Assembly: GCA_965203555.1 (NCBI GenBank)
Contig: CBDBCY010000004.1
Span: 2,816,001-2,880,000 of the forward strand
DNA length: 64,000 nt
Direction: 5' to 3'
Origin: Acidimicrobiia bacterium
GTDB taxonomy: Bacteria; Actinomycetota; Acidimicrobiia; Spongiisociales; ZC4RG35
The stretch's first letter is position 1. The number at the start of each line of letters is the position of its first letter. Under the pieces are notes generated by a model. That model was not told the DNA's origin. It worked only from the letters and a program-made list of their open reading frames with translations, and searched no databases. The translations under genes and the position numbers were made by a program. This document shows positions 19,445 to 57,809 of this stretch, one piece after another.

Positions 19445-19631
19445 GGCGTAATCAACCTCCACACCTGGTTTGTCACAGCAGCTGACCAATCTGAGGAGAT
19501 AGCCCGGAAGCATATAGATGACAATATTGGGAGGTTGTATGGAAAGGGTGGTGCAGGGTTTTCTAGAACTGGGTAGGAATCATTCAAAAGGGAGAAGCTC
19601 TCGGACCACCGGTTACCTCATCCAATCGGGG

Positions 19632-20528
19632 ATGACCGGTAAAATTGATCCCATCGGATTGCAGCAGATCGAAATATCGCCCATTCCTGCGGTCAATGTT
19701 GCTTCGGTACCGCAACGTAGCCCGCTCCGGTACCCCGGCGGCAAGACCTGGCTGGTTCCTCACATTCGCGCCTGGCTGGAGGACTACTCAGAAAGACCCG
19801 GTTTGCTGCTTGAACCCTTCGCCGGGGGTGGGATTGTCTCGTTGACCGCTGTGATGGAAGATCTGGTGGACCAGTGTCTCTTGGTTGAACTGGACCGCGA
19901 TGTCGCTGCCCTTTGGCACGCCGCTCTTCGAAATGGAGACGAGCTTGCCGAGAAGGTGCTGTGCTTCACTCCTACCAGGGATGCAGTGCACTCTTTGATG
20001 GCCCGAGTGCCTGAGAATGTCCTGGAGCACGGCTTCCGCACCCTCGTGTTGAACCGTACCCGTAGGGGCGGAATCCTCGCTCCCGGCGCATCTTTCACCA
20101 AGAGAGGGGAGAATGGGAAGGGGCTGGCGTCTCGTTGGTACCCGGAGACGATCGCCAAGCGGTTGGGGGAGATTGCCAAACACGCAAACCGTATCGGCTT
20201 TTGCGAGACCGATGGAATGCAGATGCTATCGGCATTCTTGCATCAACTCGGTGAAGGAGTCGTGCTCTTCATCGATCCTCCCTATACGGCAGGTGGCAAG
20301 CGGGCAGGGAGGCGTCTTTACGCTCACAACGAGTTGGACCATCCCCGGCTTTTTGAGATGCTTGCTGAGAGCGACGCTGATTTCCTCATGACCTACGATC
20401 TGTCGTCGGAGATTGTTACCTTGGTGCGGGAACACGGCTTTCACGCAGTCCAAGTAATCATGAAGAACACCCACCATGCCCGCATCCCGGAACTAGTGAT
20501 CACTCCACGGCCCGTCTTCGGGCCATGA
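19632..20528 (+). CDS. D12-class DNA adenine methyltransferase (Dam-like)
   Basis: 'SPLRYPGGKTWL', 'EPFAGGG', 'FIDPPY'; start uncertain (ORF open from 19518). Confidence 0.88.
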   Translation: MTGKIDPIGLQQIEISPIPAVNVASVPQRSPLRYPGGKTWLVPHIRAWLEDYSERPGLLLEPFAGGGIVSLTAVMEDLVDQCLLVELDRDVAALWHAALRNGDELAEKVLCFTPTRDAVHSLMARVPENVLEHGFRTLVLNRTRRGGILAPGASFTKRGENGKGLASRWYPETIAKRLGEIAKHANRIGFCETDGMQMLSAFLHQLGEGVVLFIDPPYTAGGKRAGRRLYAHNELDHPRLFEMLAESDADFLMTYDLSSEIVTLVREHGFHAVQVIMKNTHHARIPELVITPRPVFGP

Positions 20529-20560
20529 CAACCCGTTTCTTCGGGCCATGACAACTCGTT
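20515..20560 (+). repeat. 23 bp tandem duplication at the MTase/REase junction
   Basis: tcttcgggccatgacaacccgtt / tcttcgggccatgacaactcgtt. Confidence 0.9.
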
Positions 20561-21426
20561 TTGGGATAGCGGAGTGGTACGGACACCCTCTTCTGGCGCT
20601 CTCGGCCCAAGATCGGAGGGTCCTGGCCAGGAAGGCGCTCCGAGAAGAGAGCGGGACTCCGCCTTGTCCATTTCAGGAAGGCAGGCCTCCTTGCCGTAAA
20701 CGCGGCGGCGTTTGCTCTCTCCGCCGCTATCAAGAAGGCGAGAGGGGTCGGATAGCCCAGGCGGTGGAGGATCCGGTGGTAGTCTGCCCCGCTCGCTTTG
20801 AGGAAGGACATATGCTGGTCGGGTGGTTGGCTGAGATCGTCGGGTTCTCCGCAGCGAAGACCAAACTCGCCAGGGAGGTCCCCTTCATGGAGGGAACTAC
20901 CACCGGGAAGCCGGCGGGGAAGATCGATATGGTGGTGGCCAGAACTTCCAACGGTGATCTCGACTGGTACGGCCTTGAGATTCAGGCGGTATATTTCTCG
21001 GGCAGGGGCATGGACTCCGAGTATCAGACATTGCGAGACGATGACTGTGCCGAGCCCCCGTTTCCGGGAGCGGTCCGCAGGCCGGATTGGCGATCCTCGA
21101 GCGCCAAGCGCCTCATGCCACAACTTCAGATCAAAGTGCCCACCTTGCGAAGGTGGGGCTCCAAGTTGGCCGTGGCTGTGGATCGGCCTTTCTTTGATTC
21201 CATGGGAGGGCCGAGTTCCAATCCAAGCCACGATCTGAATGAAGGTGACATCGTATGGATGGTGCCAAAGTTATCGAAAGACACCAATGGGAAATACACG
21301 CTTTCACATGACCATTGGGAAGTTCTCACTTTGGAAGATTCCAGCAGGAAACTGCTTGCTGCAAGGACGATCCCACGTGGGGCATTCGAGCAAACTCTCC
21401 GAGACAAGCTGCAACTCATAGGTTGA
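20548..21426 (+). CDS. NotI-family restriction endonuclease
   Basis: Cys4 metal motif 'CPF..C..GGVCS...VCPARF', 'IDMVV', 'LEIQAVYFSG', 'RPDWRSSSAKRLMPQLQIK...WGSKLAV'. Confidence 0.8.
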   Translation: MTTRFGIAEWYGHPLLALSAQDRRVLARKALREESGTPPCPFQEGRPPCRKRGGVCSLRRYQEGERGRIAQAVEDPVVVCPARFEEGHMLVGWLAEIVGFSAAKTKLAREVPFMEGTTTGKPAGKIDMVVARTSNGDLDWYGLEIQAVYFSGRGMDSEYQTLRDDDCAEPPFPGAVRRPDWRSSSAKRLMPQLQIKVPTLRRWGSKLAVAVDRPFFDSMGGPSSNPSHDLNEGDIVWMVPKLSKDTNGKYTLSHDHWEVLTLEDSSRKLLAARTIPRGAFEQTLRDKLQLIG

Positions 21427-23486: not shown

Positions 23487-24332
23487 ATGAGCAATAGAGG
23501 GCTGTGGGAGCGCTTAGAGAAACGGGTGGGACAGAAGATCGAGGGCTTCGCGGGACTGGCGGCGGTTTCGGTGTTGGATCTGGAGCGTGGAGACGGATTC
23601 TCCATCCGCGGCGACGAGGTGTTTCCCACCGCGTCATCCATCAAGATTCACATCCTGACACAGCTGTTGACCCGCTCCGAGCGGGGTGAGATCGACCTTG
23701 CCGACCGCGTCAGGATTACCCCGGAGATGTACGGAAGGGGCAGCGGGGTGGTCCACTACATGGAGAGCGAACCCGAACTGTCGGTGCTGGACATCGCCAT
23801 CCTGATGATCATCGTGTCGGACAACACGGCAACCAACATGTGTATCGACTGGGCGGGCATGGAGGCAACCAACGCGCTGTTGGAAGACATGGGCCTCGAG
23901 AACACCAAGCTGAGGCGCAAGATGATGGACAGCGAAGCCATAGACCGCGGTGAAGAGAACATCTCGACGCCGAACGAACTGGTGGCGATGATGGAGATGC
24001 TGTATCGGGGGAAGCCGTCGCCGACGGTGGCGGAGCAGGTCCTGCGCATCCTGGGAAAGCCCAAGTCCGCGCCGTTGAACCGCGCGATCCCGCCCAACCT
24101 GGCGGTTGCCAACAAGTCGGGCGGAATGGAACGGGTCCGCTGCGACGTTGGAATCGTGTTTCTCCCAAACCGGCCCTACGCCATCACGGTGATGACCAAG
24201 TTCGGGCTGCACGACTCCACAGCCAGCGAAGCGTTGATCGTGGACGTGGCCCGCGACGTACACCAGACCATGGTGGCGCTGGCCAGCACCAACGACTACG
24301 GGTTGGGTGTTCTCACCTTCACGAGTTACTGA
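23487..24332 (+). CDS. Serine hydrolase, class A beta-lactamase-like family
   Basis: SxxK 'ASSIK', 'SDNTATN', 'NKSG'; no signal peptide. Confidence 0.88.
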   Translation: MSNRGLWERLEKRVGQKIEGFAGLAAVSVLDLERGDGFSIRGDEVFPTASSIKIHILTQLLTRSERGEIDLADRVRITPEMYGRGSGVVHYMESEPELSVLDIAILMIIVSDNTATNMCIDWAGMEATNALLEDMGLENTKLRRKMMDSEAIDRGEENISTPNELVAMMEMLYRGKPSPTVAEQVLRILGKPKSAPLNRAIPPNLAVANKSGGMERVRCDVGIVFLPNRPYAITVMTKFGLHDSTASEALIVDVARDVHQTMVALASTNDYGLGVLTFTSY

Positions 24333-27501: not shown

Positions 27502-27861
27502 TCAGAGATCGGCTTTTTCCCGGGCTTCTTCATATTGATGCAATGCCACCAAAAAGCCTATGAACAGGACGGCGGAAACCACCGTATAGGCAATCGGGAC
27601 GATCCGCACCTCGAAAGCGTTGAGTCCCTCGATGTTGGCCGGGCGAGGTCCCCGCGGCGCATAGAGCACGAACAACAGGCTCCCGATCGTCATCCAGGCC
27701 GAAATCCCGGCGCCGGTGACCAGGAAGGCGAGTTTTTTGCCAAGGTTGGTGTAGTTCAACAGGTATATGGTGCCGTAGAACACCAGGATGGCCGTCAACA
27801 GCAGGATGATCCCGGTGACGAACAGATTGGCCGAGAGCAGGGAGCGGAAAAGTTCGCGCAT
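27502..27861 (-). CDS. Small 3-TM membrane protein, last gene of the qcr-like operon
   Basis: Hydrophobic ORF starting 2 bp after the cytochrome c stop. Confidence 0.75.
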   Translation of the reverse strand: MRELFRSLLSANLFVTGIILLLTAILVFYGTIYLLNYTNLGKKLAFLVTGAGISAWMTIGSLLFVLYAPRGPRPANIEGLNAFEVRIVPIAYTVVSAVLFIGFLVALHQYEEAREKADL

Positions 27862-27863
27862 TT

Positions 27864-29570
27864 CTAGGTCCCCTTACCGTTGAGATCAGCAGCCCACAGA
27901 TACTCCACCAGCAGGTCCAGGTCGTCGGACGACAGCACTGCGCCAAAGGCCGGCATCTGCCCGTTCCCGAACCCGTTCACCCCGTAGGGTTGGTCCGCCA
28001 CCGCTCCCACCAGCAGGAAGTCGCGGAGGTTGTCCTTGGTCAGGAACTGCACGCGGGGCCGGCCTCTCCAGACGGCCGGTCCGAATCCTCCCGAGCCCGG
28101 CTGGCTGGCGTAGGGCGTTCCCGCCGACCAGCCGGACGTGTGACAGCGGGAGCAGTACCCGGTGAACACTCCCACCGCCCGGGTGGCGCTGTCCAGGTCG
28201 CCTCCGAAGGCAACGTCGGCCACGCCTTGGAGGTCTATCTCCCAATTGCGGTGTTGAACGGCGGCCAGCAGTTCCTCCAGTCCCGCTCGGGCGGGAGCGA
28301 GCAGACGTTCGGCGTTCTCGGTTCGCACGCGAAGGTTGATGGCGGCGGCTTCCATGCCGGAGATGGCGGTGGCGGCGGCCTGGTCGTCGGTGACCCCCCC
28401 TCCCGAGGAAGCCCGTTCCGGGTCGAGGTCCACCACCGTCAGGGTGTTGGGCCGCAGGGCGGTACGGGCCAGGGCGAGTTCGGCGGTGAGCACTCTCTCC
28501 GCCCGGTCGGACAGTCCGTCCCCGTCGGAGTCCTCCTCGCCCTCGGCCTGCAATGCCGTTCGGATCGACTGCATCCGCAGTTCCAGGACGGGCGCCCGGG
28601 ATATCACTTCCTGCAGTTCGGAGATGGCATGATCGGCCACGTCGGCATCGGGACGCCCGTCGGTGGCGGGGTTCTGAGGATCGAAGGTCAGAGCCTCGAT
28701 CTCGACGATGTCGAACAGAGCCGCCGCCGCGGCGGTAAGTTCGGAGATGGCCACCTCGGAGGCGTCGGAGAGATTGTCGCCGTCCCGGTCGATCCCCCGG
28801 CCGGAACCCTCCCGCGTCTGGCGGGCCAATTCCACCAGGTTGGCCATCGTGAACGCGTAGCGGGGCGCGCTTTCGATGTCGGAGATCAACTGGCGCTGTT
28901 CGATGATGGCTCTCTCCAAGGCCTGGTCGGCGTTCTCCAGCAGGCTCAACTGGCCCGTTACGATGGTGTCGGTCTTGCGGAGGCTCTCTTGCTGGGAGAC
29001 CTGGATGCTCTCGAGGTAGTTGACGATGTCGAAGATCTGCTGCTCGTTCATGGGACCGCCTCCCACCGTGCCCCAGGGAGGCATCGGAGAGTTGCCCCGT
29101 CCATATGTGACCCAGTAGGTGATGATGTCACGGTCATACCGCATGAATATGTCATCCAGGGCGGGCGCCGACCAGGAAACGCTCACTCCGGTGCGCTTCT
29201 CCACGTAGCTGGCCACTCCTCCCACGCCGTTGGGGCCGTGACAACTCCAGCAGTCCGCCTCCCCCGGTCCCACCAGTTCGGCGCCCCTTTCCACCGACTC
29301 TTCGTGGAACTGGTCGACGAAGCTGTCCTGGCGGTCGGTTTCGGTCAGGTAGTAGATCGCCAGTCCCACCGCCAGGAACGCCGACAGCAGGACGGCGCCC
29401 TGCTGGACCCGTTCCAGCCGCCGGGTCTCCAAGGCGTCGTCGGTGACCCCCGGCGCCTGGTTGGGCGGGATGCCTTCCCGTCGGCGGGAGCGCAGTGCGG
29501 CCACTCCCAGGAAACTGAGCCAGATGACGGCTCCCACCATCACCAGGGTGATTACCAGCGTTGAGTCCAC
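27864..29570 (-). CDS. Membrane-anchored diheme cytochrome c of the Rieske/cytb complex
   Basis: Two N-terminal TMs; CWSCH...'SPMPPWG' and CSRCH...'GQMPAFG'; DxDGDxLSD motifs between the heme domains. Confidence 0.85.
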   Translation of the reverse strand: MDSTLVITLVMVGAVIWLSFLGVAALRSRRREGIPPNQAPGVTDDALETRRLERVQQGAVLLSAFLAVGLAIYYLTETDRQDSFVDQFHEESVERGAELVGPGEADCWSCHGPNGVGGVASYVEKRTGVSVSWSAPALDDIFMRYDRDIITYWVTYGRGNSPMPPWGTVGGGPMNEQQIFDIVNYLESIQVSQQESLRKTDTIVTGQLSLLENADQALERAIIEQRQLISDIESAPRYAFTMANLVELARQTREGSGRGIDRDGDNLSDASEVAISELTAAAAALFDIVEIEALTFDPQNPATDGRPDADVADHAISELQEVISRAPVLELRMQSIRTALQAEGEEDSDGDGLSDRAERVLTAELALARTALRPNTLTVVDLDPERASSGGGVTDDQAAATAISGMEAAAINLRVRTENAERLLAPARAGLEELLAAVQHRNWEIDLQGVADVAFGGDLDSATRAVGVFTGYCSRCHTSGWSAGTPYASQPGSGGFGPAVWRGRPRVQFLTKDNLRDFLLVGAVADQPYGVNGFGNGQMPAFGAVLSSDDLDLLVEYLWAADLNGKGT

Positions 29571-29578
29571 GAATACTC

Positions 29579-30442
29579 CTAGATGCAGGAAGGGCCTTGC
29601 GGATAGGACACGGACTGGGCGATGGCCCGCGGGGTCTCCACGATCGTCCCGGTTCTGATGATCAGCCGCCCGTTGTCTGACACGTGGACCGCGAACCGGT
29701 CGAGGTTACGAGGGGCCGGACCGGCGAAATATTCGCCGATGGAGTTGTACTTGGAACCGTGGCAGGGACATTCGAAACCCTGGGAGTCGCCACACCAGGG
29801 CACTCGGCATCCCAGGTGTACGCATCGTTGATACAGCGCCATCAGGCCGCCGGCCACGAGATCCTGTTCGGCGAGTTGCTCGCTTCCCTGGGCGGGCGCC
29901 GGGACCACGTAGGCGCGGGCGTCGGGAATGAAAGCGGGAGTGATCAGCCCGGCGGCGTCGGTCATCTCGGGAACCAGGTCGGCGACGTTCCCGGCGTCCA
30001 CGTCGCTTCCGAAGCCCCCGCTGATCTTGGGCCATAGAAAGGCCAGAATCTCTATTCCCATGATTCCGAACCATGCCACCGACATGGCGGCCAGCGACCG
30101 GTTGAAGAACTGTCGGCGTGTCACCCCCACTTCCTCGGGGGAGGCTTCCACTATCACCTGTGATTCGGTGATGGGCGCCAACGCCTCCGTCACATGGGAG
30201 GGCTCCTCTTCTGTCACCGCCACCTCGTCCCCGGCCATCTCCGGTTCTTCGGCGGTGGCGGGGATCACCAACTCCATGGTGGGAGCGGAACGGTCGGCCT
30301 TGCGGGCGGCGCGTTCCACCCGCTTGGGCCACAGAGACGAGGCGTCCGGCTCGGCGCGGCGGAAGGCGATGGTGAATGCGCCAACCGCCGCGGCGATTGC
30401 CACCGCCGCCACTCCGATGATGATCAGCTCTGCGCCGCCCAT
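29579..30442 (-). CDS. qcrA: Rieske 2Fe-2S subunit of menaquinol:cytochrome c reductase
   Basis: 'CVHLGC' and 'CPCHGSKY', 'GPAPRNL', Tat-like 'TRRQF' before the TM. Confidence 0.92.
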
Positions 30443-30470: not shown

Positions 30471-31391
30471 TCAGTGTCCTCCAAAGTCGACCCAGTCTTT
30501 CAAGTCGTCGAAAAAGACTCCGTCAACCCATGGATATGCGAAATTGAATCCCGGGCCCCGGAACAACACTCCCAGGATGGTGAGAGTGGCCGACCCGGTC
30601 AGGAAGATGGTGTAGAGCATGATGGCCAGTTTGCGGTCCGACGGCCGGGTGGAGGGATTGCGATCGATGTAGGGGATCATCATGAATCCCACTATCCCGA
30701 TCACCGTCGGCACAGTCACCCCGGCGATCTGAGGATCGAAATAGGACAGCATCTCCTGCAGCCCCAGGAAATACCAGGGCGCCTTCGACGGGTTGGGGGT
30801 GGCGTTGAAATTGGCCGCTTCCAACAGAGGCGCCTGGAGGATCACCGACAGAACCAAGAGGAATGCGGTCATCGCCAGCAGGGCGGTGAATTCGGTGATC
30901 ATCAGATGCGGCCAGGTGTTGACCTTGTCGGTGGGATCGGCCTTCACCTGCTGGATTGCCCGGGCTTTCACCACCGTCAGCAGCCGCTGGTGGCGCACTC
31001 CCTCCGGAAGGTCGGCCGGCGGCGCCGAGGGGCGGACCGACACCACCGCAGCCAGTCTTCCGGCGCCGTTTTCCGCCGTGTCGGCCGGAGCAACAGGAGG
31101 TGGTTCCGCGGCGGGCGCCTCGGGGGCCTCCGGCTCGGCCACCGCGGTGACGGCGGGCGGCGGGGCGGAAGCCGGGTCGGGAGGCTGGGGTTGCGGAGGC
31201 ATCTCCGAAACCGGAGTATGGGTGGTGGTCGGAACGAATTCCGGAGCGGGCACCGAAACCGACTCGGCGGCTATCTCGGTTACCGGGGCCTCCCCGCGCA
31301 TCTCGGCCAGCACCTGCTCCACCGGCAGGCCCAGCGCCTTGGCCTTGGCTTCGGCGGACCGCCTGAGCAGTTCTTCGGGTATCTGTGGCAC
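30471..31391 (-). CDS. Cytochrome b6f subunit IV-like (cytochrome b C-terminal) with N-terminal helical motif and Pro-rich linker
   Basis: 'TWPHL', 'ANFNATPNPSKAPWYFLGLQE' (PEWY-equivalent), 'PYIDRNP'. Confidence 0.88.
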   Translation of the reverse strand: MPQIPEELLRRSAEAKAKALGLPVEQVLAEMRGEAPVTEIAAESVSVPAPEFVPTTTHTPVSEMPPQPQPPDPASAPPPAVTAVAEPEAPEAPAAEPPPVAPADTAENGAGRLAAVVSVRPSAPPADLPEGVRHQRLLTVVKARAIQQVKADPTDKVNTWPHLMITEFTALLAMTAFLLVLSVILQAPLLEAANFNATPNPSKAPWYFLGLQEMLSYFDPQIAGVTVPTVIGIVGFMMIPYIDRNPSTRPSDRKLAIMLYTIFLTGSATLTILGVLFRGPGFNFAYPWVDGVFFDDLKDWVDFGGH

Positions 31392-31410: not shown

Positions 31411-32199
31411 TTACAGAGGTCCGGAGATGCCGCCGTCTTTGCGGACTCTCCAGAAGTGGACAGCCAAAAAGATCACGATGATGAAAGGGAGGAACAACAC
31501 ATGGAGCACGTACCATCGCAGCAGCGTCCCGGCGGTGACCTCCACCCCGCCCAACAAGGCGAATTTCACCTGCGTGCCTATCACCGGGACGAATCCGGCC
31601 ATGTTGGTTCCCACCGTCACCGCCCACAGGGCCAACTGGTCCCAGGGAAGCAGGTAGCCGGTGAAGGAAAGCAGCAGGGTCAGCAGCAACAGGATCACAC
31701 CCACCACCCAGTTGAACTCCCGGGGTGGCTTGTAGGCGCCGTGGTAGAACACCCGGGACATGTGGAGGAATACGGTGAGCACCATCAGATGGGCGCCCCA
31801 GCGGTGCATGTTCCTCATCAGGGAACCGAAGGCGATGTCGGTGGAGAGCGCCTGCACGTCGATGTAGGCGCGTTCGGCGGTGGGGGCGTAGTAGAACATC
31901 AGGAAAATTCCCGTGACGGTCAGGAGGATGAACAAGAAGAAACTCAGCCCGCCCAGGCACAGCGTGTAGGAAAGCTTGACTCCGTGCCGCTTGACCTTCA
32001 CCGGGTGGAGGTGGTAGAGCACGTTGTTCATGATCACGTAGGATCGGTTGCGGGGAGTGTCGGTGTATCCCTTCTTGAAAGGGGAACCGGGCCGCAGGAC
32101 CGAATCCATGAACTGGCCCGACCAGACCCGACCCGCCAAGTCGGCGGCATGGGTGCGGGCCTTGGTCATCAGACCCTGCTTTCCGTTTCGTCTGCTCAC
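31411..32199 (-). CDS. qcrB: Cytochrome b6-type (short) cytochrome b subunit
   Basis: 'YTLCLGG' (heme ci Cys), '[15 protein letters not shown]', 'TGYLLPWDQ', 'YVLHVLFLP...[16 protein letters not shown]'. Confidence 0.93.
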
Positions 32200-32209
32200 T
32201 GCTCGCTCC

Positions 32210-32659
32210 TTACCAGCGCATTCCGTAGGTGTAGCCGTGCTTGAAGTCTCGCTGGCCGGTGTCCACCTCCCAGGGCGCCGTGTTGAGGCCCATCTCCTCG
32301 GCCTGGGCGGCCAGGGAGCCCTCGAATTTTCCGAGTGAGATCACCCCGGTGGGACAGCGGTCGATGCACAGGGCGCAGCGGGTGCATTCGTTCTCGTCGA
32401 CCACGAAGAAACCATAGTTGGTGGTGTCTTGGCGGGGATCTTCGACATTGACCGCTTCGTCGATGGCTTCCATGGACAGATAGAAAATGCATTTCCACGG
32501 GCAGATGTCCACGCACCCTTCGCAGATGATGCATTCGGACTGGTCGATGTGGAGGAACTGCTTGGGACGAAGCTTCCCCTTGTAGAAGTCGTTCTCGACC
32601 AGGGCGAGCTGGTAGTCGTCGCGGAAGGGCGGGGTCTCGTCAACAACGCCGCGGGGCAT
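32210..32659 (-). CDS. 2x[4Fe-4S] dicluster ferredoxin
   Basis: [12 protein letters not shown] and [12 protein letters not shown]. Confidence 0.9.
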
Positions 32660-32660
32660 C

Positions 32661-33287
32661 TCAGCGGTCTCCCTTCACCATCGGCCGGCCGTAGGGGGAG
32701 AGTTTGGTGGCGGCTTTCTTCTTGGGCGGCTTGTAAACCTGCTGGAACAGGTAGGCAACCAGGCCGGCTCCCGCCAGGGCGGTCACGTTGTAGCCTCCCG
32801 AAATCGCGTCCTTGATGGCCGCCCAGCTTATCGAGACCTCGTTGCCCAGCATCAGTATGGGAGGAATGTCGAAGGCGATCCGCTGGTTCGACCAGTCGAG
32901 GTCGGTCTGGGAGAGGTTGAGCCACTCGGAGGGGACAATGCCGAACACCAGCACGAACTCCATCCAGACCAGGAAGGCGGCGAAGGCAGCCCTGGCCCAG
33001 GTCATCTTTTGGTTGAGCACCCACAGGAAGGCGGCGCCCACCAGCATCATCTGGGAGGCGCCGAAGGCGGCCAGATAGCCGATGCTCTTCCAGAACCAAC
33101 CGCGCGGCACCCAGTTGAAGTAGTCCACCACCAGGGGCGTCGCCACCCCGTCGACGATCTCGGTCTCGGGGAGCTTGGAGTAGTGAACCCACAGCACGGC
33201 CACCGCCATCAGGCCGGTGCCCAGCACCAAAGACGCCCACCCGATGATGATTCGGTGCTTATCGCTTATGGCTGCGAGGCGATGCAT
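32661..33287 (-). CDS. Hypothetical 4-TM membrane protein, first gene of the qcr-like operon
   Basis: Hydrophobic segments, 'GIVPSEWL', C-terminal 'SPYGRPMVKG'; 1 bp from the ferredoxin start. Confidence 0.75.
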   Translation of the reverse strand: MHRLAAISDKHRIIIGWASLVLGTGLMAVAVLWVHYSKLPETEIVDGVATPLVVDYFNWVPRGWFWKSIGYLAAFGASQMMLVGAAFLWVLNQKMTWARAAFAAFLVWMEFVLVFGIVPSEWLNLSQTDLDWSNQRIAFDIPPILMLGNEVSISWAAIKDAISGGYNVTALAGAGLVAYLFQQVYKPPKKKAATKLSPYGRPMVKGDR

Positions 33288-33435
33288 CTTTAGGAGATGA
33301 CCTTCCCGGATCGGAGCACTCCTATTTTTACACCGCAGGCGCCTTCGAACAAAGTTTTGTGAGTTCCCTGCCGATCGCCGGCGGCACCCGGCAGCACGAC
33401 CGGCGCGCCGAGCGGGGTTTCGTTCTTGCTATCTT

Positions 33436-35016
33436 TTGGAGCGGCGATCATTGGCTAACTTTCCAATCTGGAGCCACGGGGGTCGTGCTCTGAATACAAC
33501 CAAGAATAATCAAGTCGCAGATCCGAAGAAACGAGCCGGACGGTACGCCGCCTGGTCGGACAGGTTGGGTCCGGACACCGCCGCCAAGTGGCACATCGTC
33601 ATGTCCACCGCCTTCCTGGCCCTGGCCGGGATTGTCTGGGTGGTGGCCATGGTGGAAGTTCGGTTCTCCGGCACGCTGACCGGGCCTTTCTCCTACGGTC
33701 GGGTGCGGTCCGTGGCTCTGTTGCTGGCGTTGATCGGCTGGTTGACGCTGTCCCTGGCGGGTGGGGTCTATTACCTGTTGCCCAGGCTCACCGGTACGCC
33801 GATGCGCGGCGAGGCGTTGGCCGTGGCCGGGGGAGCGGCCACTGCGGCGGTGACGGTGGCGGGAGCGGGGGTGGTGCTCCTGGGTTGGGGAGACGGAAGC
33901 GGCCCGTTCGCTCTTCCCTGGTGGGCTTCGCTTCCGCTGCTGGTCACTCTGCTGGCGCCGTCGGTAGTGACTGTCTCCACGGTTCGCCATCGTCAGGAAC
34001 CCAACATTTTTGTGTCTCTGTGGTATGTCCTGGCCGGGGTGGTCTGGCTGCCGCTTCTCTATCTGGCCGGCGCCATGGCGGCGCCCTCCTCGCTGGCCGG
34101 GGCTCTTTCCGAGTCGATAGCTCTGTTCGGGCTCTCCAACTTGTGGGTGGTGGGCGTGGGAGTGGGGCTGGCGTATTACGCCCTGGTGAAGGACACCGGC
34201 AATCCGCTGGCCAGCAGGCAGTTGGCGAGAGTCGGATTCTGGTCCCTGGCTTTCGCGTCGGCCTGGTCGGGCGTGGCGCCGCTGGTTTTCGGTCCCGTTC
34301 CGGGCTGGCTGGAAGCGGTGGCGTTTCTGATGACCCTCGCCCTTCCCGTGTCGGCTCTGGCCAACGCCGCCAATCTTTCTCTCACCGCCGAACAGACCTG
34401 GGCCGATCGGCAGAGCCGTCCGGTGGTCGCCGCTGCCCTGGCGGGGTCGTTCTTCGCCCTGTTGACGGCCTCTCTAACCAGCTTCGGGACGGTTCGCTCC
34501 GCGGCGGCCGTGGTGGGGCTCACCCCCTTCTGGGACGGTGTGCTGTACGGGACCCTGTTCGGCGCCGGCGGCCTGTTCGTTGCGGCCTGGTCCTACCAGG
34601 CGCTTCCGTCGATCAGCGGGCGGAAGTTGGCCGGCATGAACCTTGCCAGGGGGCATCTGCGGTTGACTTTCTGGGGAGTGGGTCTGACTTCGGCGCTGCT
34701 GGTGGGGGCCGGGTTGGTATCGGGCTACAGCTGGGCGGGCGGCGCCTACACAGGGATAAGTCCCACCGGCGCCGGATGGGGGGATCTGGCCGGCATGTCC
34801 TCGTTGCTGGTCGGGTTGTCCATACTGACCGGGCTGGTGGCTCTGGCGGGGCAATTGGCCTTCTGTCTGCTCATCTTCAGGACATTCACCACCGGCAGGC
34901 CCGCCGCACAGGAGATGTTCACTTTGGCGGATGAGGACCTTCCGGCCGATTCCGACAGTTCCTATGATGACGACGGCGGAAGCGATCCGGATAAAAGGGA
35001 GGAAGAGCAGGGATGA
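33436..35016 (+). CDS. cbb3-type cytochrome c oxidase subunit I (CcoN) homolog lacking canonical His ligands
   Basis: CcoN landmarks 'FSYGRVR', 'YYLLPRLTGTP', 'IFVSLWY', 'AYYALVK..GNPLAS..L..VGFWSL', 'YQALPSISGR'; about 12 TMs; start uncertain. Confidence 0.75.
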   Translation: MERRSLANFPIWSHGGRALNTTKNNQVADPKKRAGRYAAWSDRLGPDTAAKWHIVMSTAFLALAGIVWVVAMVEVRFSGTLTGPFSYGRVRSVALLLALIGWLTLSLAGGVYYLLPRLTGTPMRGEALAVAGGAATAAVTVAGAGVVLLGWGDGSGPFALPWWASLPLLVTLLAPSVVTVSTVRHRQEPNIFVSLWYVLAGVVWLPLLYLAGAMAAPSSLAGALSESIALFGLSNLWVVGVGVGLAYYALVKDTGNPLASRQLARVGFWSLAFASAWSGVAPLVFGPVPGWLEAVAFLMTLALPVSALANAANLSLTAEQTWADRQSRPVVAAALAGSFFALLTASLTSFGTVRSAAAVVGLTPFWDGVLYGTLFGAGGLFVAAWSYQALPSISGRKLAGMNLARGHLRLTFWGVGLTSALLVGAGLVSGYSWAGGAYTGISPTGAGWGDLAGMSSLLVGLSILTGLVALAGQLAFCLLIFRTFTTGRPAAQEMFTLADEDLPADSDSSYDDDGGSDPDKREEEQG

Positions 35017-35819
35017 GCGAACTTCTGGAGGCAGCGGCCCAGGTGGTTGGCGCTCCCCCCGAATTGGTGCAACGTTCCGCGGAGGCGCGGGCCGGGGCCG
35101 ACGGCATTTCGGTGGAGGAAGTTCTGAGAGCTTGGGCGGGGGGAGGACCCACGCCTTCCTCGCCGCCCGGGATAGAAACGCCGCCCCCGGCGCCCGCGCC
35201 GGCCGCCCCCGCTCCGCCGGCCGCCCCCACGGCGCCCCCACCCCCAGCTCCGCCGCCGCCCGTAGCGCCGCCTCCTCCGTCCGTGGCTCCTGCCACCCCT
35301 CCGGCCCAGCCTGTTCGGCCCGCCGCGGCGGCCACCGGCCCGCCCCCGGTGCTGAAGGGCCGGGTTGACCGGCCGTTTCGGTATTTCTTCGGCGCCGCCG
35401 CCCTGTTGGTCCTGTGTCTGGTGGTTACCCTGGTGCTTCCCTCCTTCTCCGGCGCCGGCCGCGGCGCTCTCCATTCCGAGATTCCCTACACTGAAGCGGC
35501 TTTGGTGGGACAGAGTGAGTACTTGGCGGAAGGGTGTGCAGGTTGCCACACCCAGATGGTCCGACCGATAGTGGCCGATGCGCAACTGGCCGCCTCGGCC
35601 GGACTGGGCGGGATAACCCTGTCCGACACCAACCAGGTGATTGGTCGGCAACGTTACGGTCCCGATCTGGCCAACGTGGGAAATCGGATGGATTCCGAAA
35701 CCATCGAGGCGGTGCTTTCAGGGGAGGGAGGTCACATTCTCTACCGGGGAAGCTGGATGGACGACCTCGTGGCTTATCTTGTGGAGTCGAGAGTTTTGAT
35801 GGAGGCAGCCGGTGAGTGA
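35013..35819 (+). CDS. cbb3-type subunit II (CcoO)-like monoheme cytochrome c with N-terminal motif and Pro-rich linker
   Basis: 'PYTEAALVGQSEYLAEGCAGCHTQMVRP', 'GRQRYGPDLANVG'. Confidence 0.82.
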   Translation: MSELLEAAAQVVGAPPELVQRSAEARAGADGISVEEVLRAWAGGGPTPSSPPGIETPPPAPAPAAPAPPAAPTAPPPPAPPPPVAPPPPSVAPATPPAQPVRPAAAATGPPPVLKGRVDRPFRYFFGAAALLVLCLVVTLVLPSFSGAGRGALHSEIPYTEAALVGQSEYLAEGCAGCHTQMVRPIVADAQLAASAGLGGITLSDTNQVIGRQRYGPDLANVGNRMDSETIEAVLSGEGGHILYRGSWMDDLVAYLVESRVLMEAAGE

Positions 35820-36849
35820 CTTTCTTGCGCAGGCGGCCCAAGCCATGGGCGCCCCCGAGGAATTGGTGCAGCGTTCTGCCGAGGCGCGGGCCGGGGCCGA
35901 CGGGGTTCCCGTGGAAGAGGTGCTGCGGGCCTGGGCCGGGGGAGGTCCGTCGCCCGCTGCGACCGCGCCGTCGCCCCCGCCTGCTGCCCCACCCGCCCCC
36001 GATCCGACTCCGTCGCCTGCCGTGGTCGCCACTCCAGAGCCCACCCCCATCCCCGCCGCGCCCCCGATCGCCGCGGCCGCCGAAGTTGCGGCCCCTGCCC
36101 CACCGGTCGTGGCAGCCCCCCCGCCGCCGCCCTCGGAAGTAACCACCAAAGAAGCTGTGTCCTTTCCGGTGGTGGTGTCGGTCCCGACCGCTCGCCTGAA
36201 GGAGCGGACATCTTCGATCCTTCCCCGGTGGCTGGCTGCCCTCTTCCTGGTGGTTCCGGTGATCGGGTTGCTCTATCTGGCGGGGAATTCCGCCCGGGCG
36301 GGTTGTGTGGAAGGAGGAGTGGAGTTGGCTGTCAACCCCATAGATTCCACGGTGGTCAACTGCGACGGAAGCGAGTTCACCGGTCGGGCCGAAGATACCG
36401 CCGGAGCGTTTCTGGTGGTGGGGGAAGTTGTTTTCGAGACCTGCGCCGGTTGCCACGGCGCCAACGGCGAGGGCGGCGTGGGCCCGGCCATGGCCACGGT
36501 GCTGTCGGTTTTCTCCAGTTGCCCCGACCACATCGAGTGGGTCGCCCTGGCCACCGGAGGGTTCCAGGACGCCGGCATCGACACCTACGGCGATCTGGCC
36601 AAACCGGTGGGCGGCGGAGGATTCATGCCCGGGTTCGCCACCAGCAACACCGCCGAGGAGATCGCCGCCGTGGTGGCCTTCGAGAGGATCCGTTTCGGCG
36701 GCGCCGACCCTGACGAGACCCTCGTCGAGTGCGGTTTGATCGATGGAGAGGACGGCGAAGAGACCGCAGAGACCGGATCAGAGACCGAGGAGGCGGAGAC
36801 CGAGGAGGCGGAGACAGACGAGGCCGAGGCCGAGCCTGCCGACCACTGA
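35812..36849 (+). CDS. Membrane-anchored cytochrome c (CcoP-like position) with N-terminal motif and Pro-rich linker
   Basis: 'CAGCHGANGEGGVGP', 'FMPGFA', acidic tail; GTG start overlaps the upstream gene. Confidence 0.82.
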   Translation: MSDFLAQAAQAMGAPEELVQRSAEARAGADGVPVEEVLRAWAGGGPSPAATAPSPPPAAPPAPDPTPSPAVVATPEPTPIPAAPPIAAAAEVAAPAPPVVAAPPPPPSEVTTKEAVSFPVVVSVPTARLKERTSSILPRWLAALFLVVPVIGLLYLAGNSARAGCVEGGVELAVNPIDSTVVNCDGSEFTGRAEDTAGAFLVVGEVVFETCAGCHGANGEGGVGPAMATVLSVFSSCPDHIEWVALATGGFQDAGIDTYGDLAKPVGGGGFMPGFATSNTAEEIAAVVAFERIRFGGADPDETLVECGLIDGEDGEETAETGSETEEAETEEAETDEAEAEPADH

Positions 36850-56190: not shown

Positions 56191-57809
56191 ATGTTGGGTG
56201 TTGAACGTTTTGATCGGGAGTTGTTGGACGCGATGGCGGTGTGCGGTGATCTGGTGCCGGAGGGGTCGGTTTACCGGTTTTTGGCCGAGCATCGGACTGG
56301 GGTGTTCCCGGATGGGTTGTTCGAGGATTTGTTCGGCCCTCGGGGTCGTCCGTCGGTTCCGGGGTCGGTGGTGGCGACGGTGATGGTGTTACAGGCTTTG
56401 GAGGGCCTGTCCGATCGGGAGGCGAATGGGTCGGTTGCGGTGTGATATTCGGTGGAAGGCCGCGGCGGGTTTGTCTCTGGTGGATGGGGGGTTTCATCCG
56501 ACGGTGTTGACGCTGTGGCGGGCAAGACTACGCAAAAGTGAGACACCGGAGCGGATTTTCGACGCGGTTAGGAAAGTGGTGGACGAGACCGGGATATTGA
56601 GAGGTCGTCGCAGGCGGGTGTTGGACTCTACGATCTTGGATGATGCGGTGGTCACCCAGGACACGGTGACCATGATCTGTGCCCAGATACGCAAGGTTCG
56701 CCGTTTGATACCCCGAGCGCGGCAGGTGGTGTTGTCTCGTGATCTGTGAACAGGCTGGTAAGCCGTCGTGTGACTGGTCGGATCCGCAGAGTCGTTCCAA
56801 CCTGATCGACGGGTTGGTCACCGATGGGCAGGCGGTGCTGGACGCGGTCGGAGGTATCGATCTGGATGCTGGGCAGTCGGAGGCGGTGGGGTTGTTGGGG
56901 GTGGTGGTCGGCCAGGACGTGGAACCGGACCCCGATCGGGAGGGAAGATGGCGTATCGCTCGGCGGGTGGCTTCGGGTCGGACGATCTCGGTGGTCGACC
57001 CGCAGGCTCGTCACGGACGCAAAACATCGTCGCAGCGTCGCGACGGTTACAAGGCTCACATAGCTGCCGAACCGGAGACGGGGATCATCACCGTCGTTGA
57101 GGTCACCGCCGCCAACACCCCCGACGGGGAGACCGGCGCGAGAATGCTGCAAAAAGACAAACCAGCTGGCACGGACGACACCCACGATCCGGCTGGCATG
57201 GATGATCCGGCTGGTGTGGACGATCCGGCTGGTGTGGACGATCCGGCTGGTGTGGAGGTCATCGCTGATTCGGCGTACGGGTCGGGCGAGGTTCGCGCCA
57301 AGTTGAAGAAGGCCGGGTATACCACCACTGTGAAACCGATACCTTTGCGTGGTAACTATCGGTTGGGCAGTGACCAGTTCACCCGGGACGATTTCGAGGT
57401 GGATCACGACCGAAAACAGATCACCTGCCCGGCCGGGGTGACGGTGAACATCAGCCCCAAAGGCTGGGCCCGGTTCGCAAAACACTGCACCGGTTGTGGT
57501 TTTCGGAGTCGTTGCACCACCAACCGACGGGGTCGCCAGATGCGGATCCACCCCCATGACCGGTTACTGGTCCAAGCCCGCCGAAAATGGAAAGATCCCC
57601 CGACCAAACACCGGTACAACAAGTACCGGTCGACGGTTGAGCGGTTGATCGCTCACTTGGTTGCCAACGGCCACCGCAAACTCCGCTACCGGGGCACCGC
57701 TCGAAACCGGCAACAACTACACACCCGCGTAGCGGCGATCAACCTGCGCAGGCTCATCAACCTCGGACTGCACCCCACCACCACCGGATGGGCCACCAAC
57801 CCGATCTAA
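56191..57809 (+). pseudogene. IS1182-family DDE transposase, frameshifts near 56425 and 56745
   Basis: 'GRPSVP...LSDREA', 'LDST', 'VDPQARHGRK..DGYKAH', 'ADSAYG', 'CPAG', 'RSTVER'. Confidence 0.88.
57183..57254 (+). repeat. 4 x 18 bp in-frame tandem repeat (DDPAGV) inside the transposase
   Basis: gacgatccggctggtgtg units at 57183, 57201, 57219, 57237. Confidence 0.9.

Follow-up and report, generated by a model that had tools for sequence, protein, structure and literature searches.

Can a heme-copper oxidase subunit I lose every residue that holds its metals and still be kept by its hosts? The question is raised by a gene in a stretch of 64,000 nucleotides, called here the window, from an Acidimicrobiia genome (assembly GCA_965203555.1, contig CBDBCY010000004.1, positions 2,816,001 to 2,880,000 of the forward strand). 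An original prediction, made from the letters of this DNA, had described the gene as an intact homologue of CcoN, the subunit I of cbb3 oxidases, in which all six heme and copper histidines are substituted. We call it pseudo-CcoN:

33436..35016, plus strand: pseudo-CcoN, 526 amino acids (aa), homologue of cbb3 subunit I with twelve transmembrane (TM) helices and without heme and CuB ligands.

The open reading frame (ORF) 33436..35016 starts with TTG and has zero internal stops. By gathering score, its product belongs to the heme-copper oxidase subunit I superfamily: Pfam PF00115 COX1 matches it with 76.4 bits (cut-off 34.8, E 2.8e-21), over residues 49-439 and profile positions 2-414 of 436. 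The best NCBIfam model is the ccoN equivalog TIGR00780, for which the protein scores 87.7 bits against a cut-off of 583.15 and is not accepted; the same model is matched by 30/30 members of the family, with a best E-value of 1.8e-54. When PDB sequences were searched with phmmer, the five matches were all cbb3 CcoN chains and none was NorB, and a profile of the 30 family members (hmmsearch) aligns to these five chains over the whole span of helices I to XII (E 8e-51 to 2.8e-40). The homologue P0012 falls only in COX1-type clusters of the protein atlas. Given this end-to-end alignment with CcoN, a hydropathy scan with 10 strong and 2 weak segments, and a distribution of Lys plus Arg of 25 on predicted cytoplasmic and 4 on predicted periplasmic segments, pseudo-CcoN is predicted to have the twelve-helix core of a subunit I. 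An intact CcoN homologue of about 12 TMs, as first proposed, is thus what we find.

The difference lies in the catalytic residues. Taking chain 3mk7_A (P. stutzeri CcoN) as the reference for numbering, with positions counted in the profile alignment, the ligands and the cross-link Tyr correspond to the following residues:

H60: family consensus Ala; A94 in the window protein.
H207: in a His-free stretch that the profile takes as an insertion; its partner in the L-INS-i alignment is F231.
Y251: family consensus Ala; S275 in the window protein.
H257: family consensus Ala; A281 in the window protein.
H258: family consensus Gln; P282 in the window protein.
H345: family consensus Val/Ile; V369 in the window protein.
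H347: family consensus Tyr; Y371 in the window protein.

The window protein keeps 0/6 of the His ligands of subunit I, and Ser275 takes the place of the cross-linked Tyr of O2-reducing oxidases. It has four histidines only, at positions 14, 53, 185 and 407, none of them at a ligand column. The pairings that had been aligned by eye (GRLRPLH with GRVRSVA, FWALITVYIWAGPHHL with FWSLAFASAWSGVAPL, and WTIGHVH with FWDGVLY) were reproduced by HMMER, and the helix VI region was rightly said to have no His. Two other accounts of these residues were tried and rejected. An alignment artefact is ruled out by the agreement of phmmer, hmmsearch and MAFFT L-INS-i on the missing ligands. A NO reductase of the NorB type (cNOR or qNOR) is ruled out by the PDB matches, five of five being cbb3 CcoN and none NorB, and the protein lacks the ligand His that NorB has.

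The loss is not peculiar to the window protein. We compared 72 members of the clade without histidines with 19 ligand-keeping rows (MAFFT L-INS-i). At the five invariant His columns, a His is found in a fraction of 0.00-0.01 of the 72 clade members, and at the cross-link column a Tyr in 0.00. The H347-equivalent column fell under the 90% listing threshold of this comparison; among 76 orthologues from the loci described below it is Tyr in 60, the top three residues being Y, F and L. The seven ligand columns of these orthologues most often read A, A, A, A, Q, I and Y, with Gln in 66/76 at the H258 column. The catalytic role of the subunit I His ligands and of the cross-link Tyr is established. 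As all of them are absent, O2 or NO reduction by the known heme-copper mechanism is excluded, by inference from that role, in keeping with what the original prediction had concluded.

Could the gene simply be a recently disabled oxidase gene that drifts neutrally, or an artefact of alignment or assembly? Pseudo-CcoN does evolve faster than cytochrome b, as such a gene would. The relatives speak against it. A word-indexed search found 197 of them, and every one of the 120 listed has a His count of 1-8; where a source name is given, it is 'cbb3-type cytochrome c oxidase subunit I'. In a HMMER search of 1.84 billion cluster representatives, 706 clusters matched at E <= 0.001. For the comparison of loci we took the best 80 of 149 relatives from species-representative genomes, which together with the window make 81 sources. 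The frame is uninterrupted over residues 60-490 in 76/81; of the remaining five, one is cut by a contig end and four have long ORFs for which the local alignment is merely shorter. The ratio of nonsynonymous to synonymous divergence (dN/dS) was calculated pairwise by the Nei-Gojobori method against the seven closest genomes, a simple counting approach applied to a GC-rich genome at dS 0.6-1.0, with these results:

Pseudo-CcoN: dN/dS 0.144-0.215, in 7/7 pairs.
CcoO-like protein: dN/dS 0.124-0.188.
SAM hydroxide adenosyltransferase, an unrelated neighbour: dN/dS 0.116-0.193.
Cytochrome b: dN/dS 0.028-0.055.

Pseudo-CcoN is constrained, though less tightly than a catalytic core subunit. The prediction that orthologues without His would be conserved with dN/dS below 1 is borne out (0.14-0.22 in 7/7 pairs). 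With these values, the intact frames in 76/81, the 1-8 His in all 120 listed relatives and three alignments in agreement, a pseudogene or neutral drift is ruled out, and we consider this explanation refuted, with practically no probability left to it. As it has no catalytic residues and is under purifying selection, pseudo-CcoN has both marks of a pseudo-enzyme.

Among the 80 loci, 55 are labelled Acidimicrobiia, 3 other Actinomycetota, 12 'uncultured Acidobacteriota' and 1 'Gammaproteobacteria'. The loci with the last two labels (L018, L021, L035, L038, L044, L045, L047, L052, L053, L071, L073, L083 and L065) have the gene order of the Acidimicrobiia loci and similar identities, and they may be mislabelled bins.

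The start of pseudo-CcoN is uncertain, with another TTG candidate at 33565. Upstream of about codon 14, indels or stops occur in five of six close relatives, and codons 15-44 are in frame in 7/7 close genomes. A block of 22 nt around the annotated TTG (33423-33444, plus strand) is identical in the 7/7 closest loci. A second block, about 45 nt downstream (33487-33516, plus strand), is nearly invariant in a seven-row alignment of the window and six of these loci; for comparison, synonymous sites of the gene have diverged by 0.6-1.0. In the RNAalifold prediction both blocks pair as a helix of about 14 bp in which all pairs are invariant and hence without covariation support. The blocks are missing from more distant loci, and a scan of the region upstream of pseudo-CcoN for Rfam families and promoters gave no matches. 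Together they may form a hairpin in the leader, over the start region, that is particular to this lineage.

How old is this loss? The tree alignment comprises 117 full-length proteins: the window protein, the representatives, another six proteins of the family and, as references that keep the ligands, three translations from named plasmids (of Sinorhizobium, of Paracoccus and of Bernardetia, the last being an annotated ccoN). FastTree divides these rows 72 against 45 with support 100. The group of 72 is that of the window protein and includes 70 rows with zero ligand His and 2 with one; the group of 45 contains all 20 ligand-keeping rows. In an IQ-TREE quick search of 70 rows, rooted on the Bernardetia ccoN, the clade of the window protein has 36 rows (SH-aLRT 99), 34 without ligand His and 2 with one, and zero ligand-keeping rows fall inside it. 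The clade without histidines is therefore old and monophyletic. These trees were built without NorB or an A/B-family outgroup, so that 'sister to' and 'nested in' the C family look the same in them. The other heme-copper families are known to carry the ligands; since, in addition, all solved relatives are CcoN and the partner protein is a CcoO homologue, loss of the ligands is the parsimonious direction. A second His-poor group (support 99), which includes P0215, P0238, P0261, P0252 and P0224, has 15 rows, 8 with part of the ligand His and 7 with none, and stands on the ligand-keeping side beside Paracoccus-type proteins. Its place elsewhere in the tree suggests that the ligands were lost more than once.

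What does such a protein do? The two genes that follow it give the first indication:

35013..35819, plus strand: CcoO-like mono-heme cytochrome c, with an N-terminal motif, a Pro/Ala-rich linker, one TM helix and a heme domain with CxxCH (C175-H179).
35812..36849, plus strand: membrane-anchored mono-heme class I cytochrome c, with N-terminal motif and linker, CxxCH (C211-H215), Met272 and four conserved Cys.

The CcoO-like gene overlaps the stop of pseudo-CcoN by 4 nt (ATGA), the mono-heme cytochrome c gene overlaps the CcoO-like gene by 8 nt, and Shine-Dalgarno-like sequences are found at both. The CcoO-like protein matches Pfam FixO with 46.6 bits (cut-off 29.6) over profile positions 27-115 of 219. 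This homology covers the membrane helix and the heme-binding half, and its PDB matches are CcoO chains; a ccoO gene is thus adjacent here, as in ccoNOQP operons. In 71/71 orthologues both the CxxCH and His241 are invariant. His241 stands where the canonical CcoO motif 'IMPxY' has the axial Met; of the domains that were aligned, the four canonical ones and the 13 fused ones of the clade all keep this motif. From these residues, the CcoO-like heme is probably bis-His and probably of lower potential, and the change of Met to His suggests a changed redox role. Among 68 orthologues of the mono-heme cytochrome c, the CxxCH is kept in 99%, Met272 in 94% and the four Cys in 94-96%. This protein is weakly CcoP-like (FixP_N E 0.11; Cytochrome_CBB3 25.1 bits, below the cut-off of 27), and it has a single CxxCH in place of the two hemes of the CcoP in ccoNOQP operons. 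No ccoQ or ccoGHIS gene was found among the window ORFs scanned with Pfam, a scan in which small ORFs were not included. Both heme c partners named in the original prediction are accordingly intact and conserved.

The link between pseudo-CcoN and heme c is closer still in part of the clade. Rows of at least 600 aa number 30 of the 72, and 28 of these 30 end in a CcoO domain that bears CxxCH. No other evidence available here argues as strongly as this fusion for the emptied subunit and a heme c domain acting as one unit.

A seven-protein operon diverges from the same 150-bp region as the pseudo-CcoN operon. Its genes are given here with the number of loci, among the 80, in which tblastn of the window protein found a match in the same place and orientation:

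32661..33287, minus strand: conserved membrane protein of 208 aa, first gene of the operon, no Pfam match; 77/80 loci.
32210..32659, minus strand: 2x[4Fe-4S] ferredoxin-like protein of 149 aa, 74-96% identity across loci; present directly upstream of cytochrome b6 in 76/80 loci.
31411..32199, minus strand: cytochrome b6-type protein, the N-terminal half of cytochrome b; 74/80 loci.
30471..31391, minus strand: subunit-IV/PetD-like C-terminal half of cytochrome b, with N-terminal motif and Pro/Ala linker; 70/80 loci.
29579..30442, minus strand: Rieske [2Fe-2S] protein; 65/80 loci.
27864..29570, minus strand: membrane-anchored di-heme cytochrome c of 568 aa, with a long insert between the heme domains; 64/80 loci.
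27502..27861, minus strand: conserved membrane protein of 119 aa, last gene of the bc operon; 63/80 loci.

On the other side, the CcoO-like gene is present in 75/80 loci and the mono-heme cytochrome c gene in 74/80. Many of the misses are loci truncated by contig ends. Identity across the class is 38-84% for pseudo-CcoN and 66-96% for cytochrome b. A crude screen for another subunit-I-like gene (ORF of at least 420 aa, GC3 of at least 0.7, hydrophobic fraction of at least 0.58) within 10 kb on either side at the 80 loci gave 3 candidates, none of them COX1.

The best PDB matches of the cytochrome b6-type protein are cyanobacterial and chloroplast b6 (E 5e-48), with actinobacterial QcrB at about 1e-23. 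It has a 'CLGG' stretch, which we take to resemble the heme-cn cysteine motif of b6. The ferredoxin gene directly upstream of the cytochrome b6 gene hints that the complex has its own ferredoxin link at the cytoplasmic face. The insert of the di-heme cytochrome c, about 270 residues long, has a weak match to bacterial TSP3 repeats (21 bits, below the cut-off), and the protein has no relative among PDB sequences. Searches of the PDB gave no match for the 208-aa protein, alone or as a profile, nor for the profile of the 119-aa protein.

The two operons have one more feature in common. Three membrane subunits, drawn from both of them, carry at the N-terminus a motif of about 35 residues, after which come a linker rich in Pro and Ala and a membrane helix:

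35049..35150, plus strand: copy in the CcoO-like protein.
35848..35949, plus strand: copy in the mono-heme cytochrome c.
31281..31385, minus strand: copy in the subunit-IV-like (PetD-like) protein.

A hidden Markov model (HMM) built from 171 instances, with the consensus GIPEALVQRSAEARAKATGVSVEEVLAAWAGGGSV, matches exactly these three ORFs in the 64-kb window. At 52/81 sources the number of motif-bearing ORFs is also 3; it is 1 in 4 sources, 2 in 13, 4 in 10 and 5 in 2. The motif has no match in Pfam. The shared docking motif of the original prediction is therefore real, and it extends to the PetD-like subunit of the neighbouring bc operon. The fused sister lineage is without it. The motif is predicted to be on the cytoplasmic side. 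In the fragment P0219 (253 aa), the C-terminal part of pseudo-CcoN is joined directly to the N-terminal motif; this is either a true fusion or a gene-call run-through of the 4-nt overlap, and under either origin the join places the motif in the cytoplasm. A database search also found a fourth motif-bearing family, multi-helix proteins of 385-413 aa without Pfam domain, two of them named 'MFS family permease' by JGI; it is not encoded in the window or in the 80 loci.

We think it probable, without being near certain, that pseudo-CcoN is a cofactor-less structural subunit, a membrane platform for the two cytochromes c in one assembly with the b6-type Rieske/cytochrome b complex. The evidence that carries this proposal is the full-length homology, the absence of ligands, selection, the old clade, synteny, the heme c partners, the fusion in the sister lineage and the motif shared across operons. 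The protein, of twelve helices and descended from CcoN, would have lost heme b, heme b3, CuB and the cross-linked Tyr, and with them O2 and NO reduction. It would serve as a membrane core for two co-translated c-type cytochromes, each anchored in the membrane, place their heme domains, and dock both to the b6-type Rieske/cytochrome b complex of the divergent operon. Such an assembly could be what is left of a supercomplex of the bc-cbb3 type after its oxidase arm was emptied, and the c hemes of that arm may hand their electrons to another acceptor, probably a genuine terminal oxidase with its genes elsewhere.

Synteny and coupling would also fit an assembly or stabilising factor, that is, a membrane chaperone for the cytochromes c, the real oxidase or the bc complex, which is not a stoichiometric subunit. 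There is a precedent of a kind, as the single-helix cbb3 assembly protein CcoH can sit at the supercomplex interface, according to the portion of PMC7876108 that deals with it. The fusion to a CcoO heme domain in 28/72 clade rows, which implies a permanent 1:1 association, and the cost of a chaperone of twelve helices and about 50 kDa lead us to regard this explanation as quite unlikely.

Several observations weigh against pseudo-CcoN being a structural platform. The most conserved segments are helix VII (mean identity 0.67) and its two flanking loops, VI-VII (0.70) and VII-VIII (0.75), most others reaching 0.30-0.58, and helix VII with these loops is the former CuB helix and the surroundings of the active site. 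In addition, His53 is a new His kept in 99% of orthologues at the predicted cytoplasmic end of helix I, and the Gln at the H258 column and the Tyr at the H347 column are conserved as given above. The conserved helix VII, H53 and Gln could point to a retained internal function rather than to a passive scaffold. One such function would be a non-redox role of the helix bundle itself, as a channel for protons, ions or small molecules or as a gas or redox sensor, with the cytochromes secondary. Besides helix VII and its loops, the charged residues suit this idea: in 76 orthologues R117, R186, E188 and R261 are kept in 100%, E493 in 97%, K252 in 96%, and R396 and R409 in 92%, all on predicted cytoplasmic loops or the C-terminal tail. 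R117, R186, E188, R261, R396 and E493 would thus be at the cytoplasmic face, if the predicted topology holds, where the proton path of cbb3 oxidases presumably starts. An intact proton path is another matter, as the polar residues invariant in ligand-keeping rows (E143, T236, S261 and Y338 of Bernardetia) are down to 7-31% in the clade, where the fold-type residues P64, W183, W266, W288, G411 and G423 are held at 64-96%. No new conserved polar cluster inside the membrane was seen in the comparisons of the clade and of the orthologues, and a channel or sensor leaves the tight coupling and fusion with heme c partners unexplained. We judge it unlikely.

A different internal function would be a redox cofactor that is still bound and still in the electron path, through unconventional ligands (Tyr371, the Gln at the H258 column, His53 or a neighbouring Met) or through residues of a partner subunit. 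The same Tyr (60/76), Gln (66/76) and His53 (99%) are its candidates, and the column beside the H60 position is Met in 80% of orthologues. In the window protein, however, the H258 column is Pro and the Met-rich columns lack Met, and none of the candidates reaches 80% across the whole clade; the clade columns conserved in at least 80% include no His, Met, Cys or Lys. His53 would be far from the heme sites, as these are near the outer face of the oxidase and the inferred topology puts His53 at the opposite end of helix I. We hold an unconventional cofactor to be very improbable. Taken together, the residue pattern rules out the known chemistry and leaves room for a function of the interior.

Three further points count against the platform. 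The relatives all come from metagenome-assembled genomes. The binding of the partners is deduced only from gene order, gene fusion and shared motifs. Finally, the replacement of the axial Met by an invariant His suggests a redox role that a simple 'wire to an oxidase' leaves unexplained. An exploratory analysis of rate covariation at 31 loci, in which the pairs are not independent, does not favour it either. The positive control, PetD-like with cytochrome b, gave the top partial r (0.60). The best partners of pseudo-CcoN were orf119 (0.54), the 208-aa protein (0.47) and the CcoO-like protein (0.39), and its partial r was 0.02 with the mono-heme cytochrome c and -0.05 with cytochrome b. This is weak evidence, as fast-evolving proteins may group trivially.

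Even so, we favour the structural platform. A larger proposal, for which our support is tentative and which we find rather less probable, is that an ancient and diverse clade of cofactor-less, CcoN-derived proteins forms the membrane core of an undescribed respiratory assembly of Acidimicrobiia and related Actinomycetota. This assembly would comprise a b6-type Rieske/cytochrome b complex with its own ferredoxin, two membrane subunits of unknown kind and the emptied arm, whose two c hemes would include one that is probably bis-His; a shared N-terminal domain in the cytoplasm would tether the parts to one another. The original prediction spoke of an 'undescribed respiratory accessory module'. 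The first word stands as far as the open literature goes, where no description was found. The word 'accessory' may understate the case: given the strict synteny in most of the 80 loci, the module may be an integral part of the bc complex, and it may be a new kind of complex.

By sequence and fold, pseudo-CcoN is thus a member of the subunit I superfamily, yet there is no enzymatic family within it whose defining catalytic features the protein shows; it is a pseudo-enzyme lineage of the C-family oxidases. No description of a subunit I homologue without ligands was found in the main texts of open-access papers or in bioRxiv, and the Murali et al. preprint, in the part we cite, regards the histidines that bind metal in subunit I as invariant throughout the heme-copper superfamily. 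A large, old and selected clade free of ligands shows that the heme-copper fold can outlive its chemistry, and offers a natural setting in which to see what the bundle of helices does beyond catalysis. There is also a practical side, as the name given to these proteins in public sources is 'cbb3-type cytochrome c oxidase subunit I'. Metagenome studies take ccoN as a marker of high-affinity oxygen respiration (PMC11334312, in the section concerned), and metagenome-assembled genomes are credited with cbb3 oxidases (PMC8357290, likewise). If such ccoN calls rest on the pseudo-CcoN family, microaerobic capacity would be over-counted for a class widespread in soil, sediment and sea. If the assembly with an emptied arm is real, the 'cbb3 oxidase' credited to these organisms would be nonexistent and the assembly would do something besides O2 reduction. 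The conserved cluster of 9 kb also suggests that, in the respiratory chain of Acidimicrobiia, the part that oxidises quinol has an architecture not yet described.

Elsewhere in the window, a D12-class adenine methyltransferase lies beside a NotI-family restriction endonuclease (19518-21426, plus strand) at a lower G+C of 0.57-0.58, likely an acquired restriction-modification system. A class-A-type beta-lactamase family protein (Beta-lactamase2, E 2e-59) is encoded at 23487-24332 (plus strand), and a DDE transposase at 56739-57809 (plus strand), in the lower-G+C right-hand part of the window.

Compared with known systems, pseudo-CcoN is closest to CcoN itself (P. stutzeri 3mk7_A, R. capsulatus 6xkw_n), with which it shares homology over all twelve helices and many Gly, Pro and Trp of the fold. 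It differs from CcoN in having 0/6 His ligands and no cross-link Tyr, and in scoring far under the cut-off of the ccoN model. Its operon resembles a cbb3 operon in that a FixO/CcoO homologue comes next, followed by a further c-type cytochrome; unlike in cbb3 operons, the third gene encodes one heme and not two, and the CcoO-like protein is a partial FixO match with His for the axial Met.

The nearest parallel for the whole cluster is the supercomplex of bc1 and cbb3 (R. capsulatus 6xkw; P. aeruginosa 8smr). In the solved structures, as far as the relevant passages of PMC7876108 and PMC10556555 describe them, CcoN helices VIII and IX and the CcoP helix touch cytochrome b and c1, and membrane-anchored c cytochromes bridge both complexes. 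Here, bc and CcoN-based modules are encoded back-to-back and have a subunit motif in common. Their CcoN, however, is an active oxidase, whereas pseudo-CcoN has no cofactor sites and its association is inferred from genes; the present cluster also has a split, b6-type cytochrome b and a ferredoxin gene beside it.

Departures from the canonical ligand set are known in the same superfamily from gNOR and nitric oxide dismutase. The present clade goes further than these, with all six ligands replaced and no plausible metal site left. Outside the superfamily, the peptidase-like core proteins of mitochondrial bc1 are catalytically dead enzyme homologues kept as structural subunits. They are like pseudo-CcoN in that an enzyme fold is under selection after the loss of its catalytic residues, inside a larger electron-transfer complex. 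In that case, however, the domains are peripheral and of a soluble type, whereas here it is the central catalytic subunit in the membrane that has been emptied.

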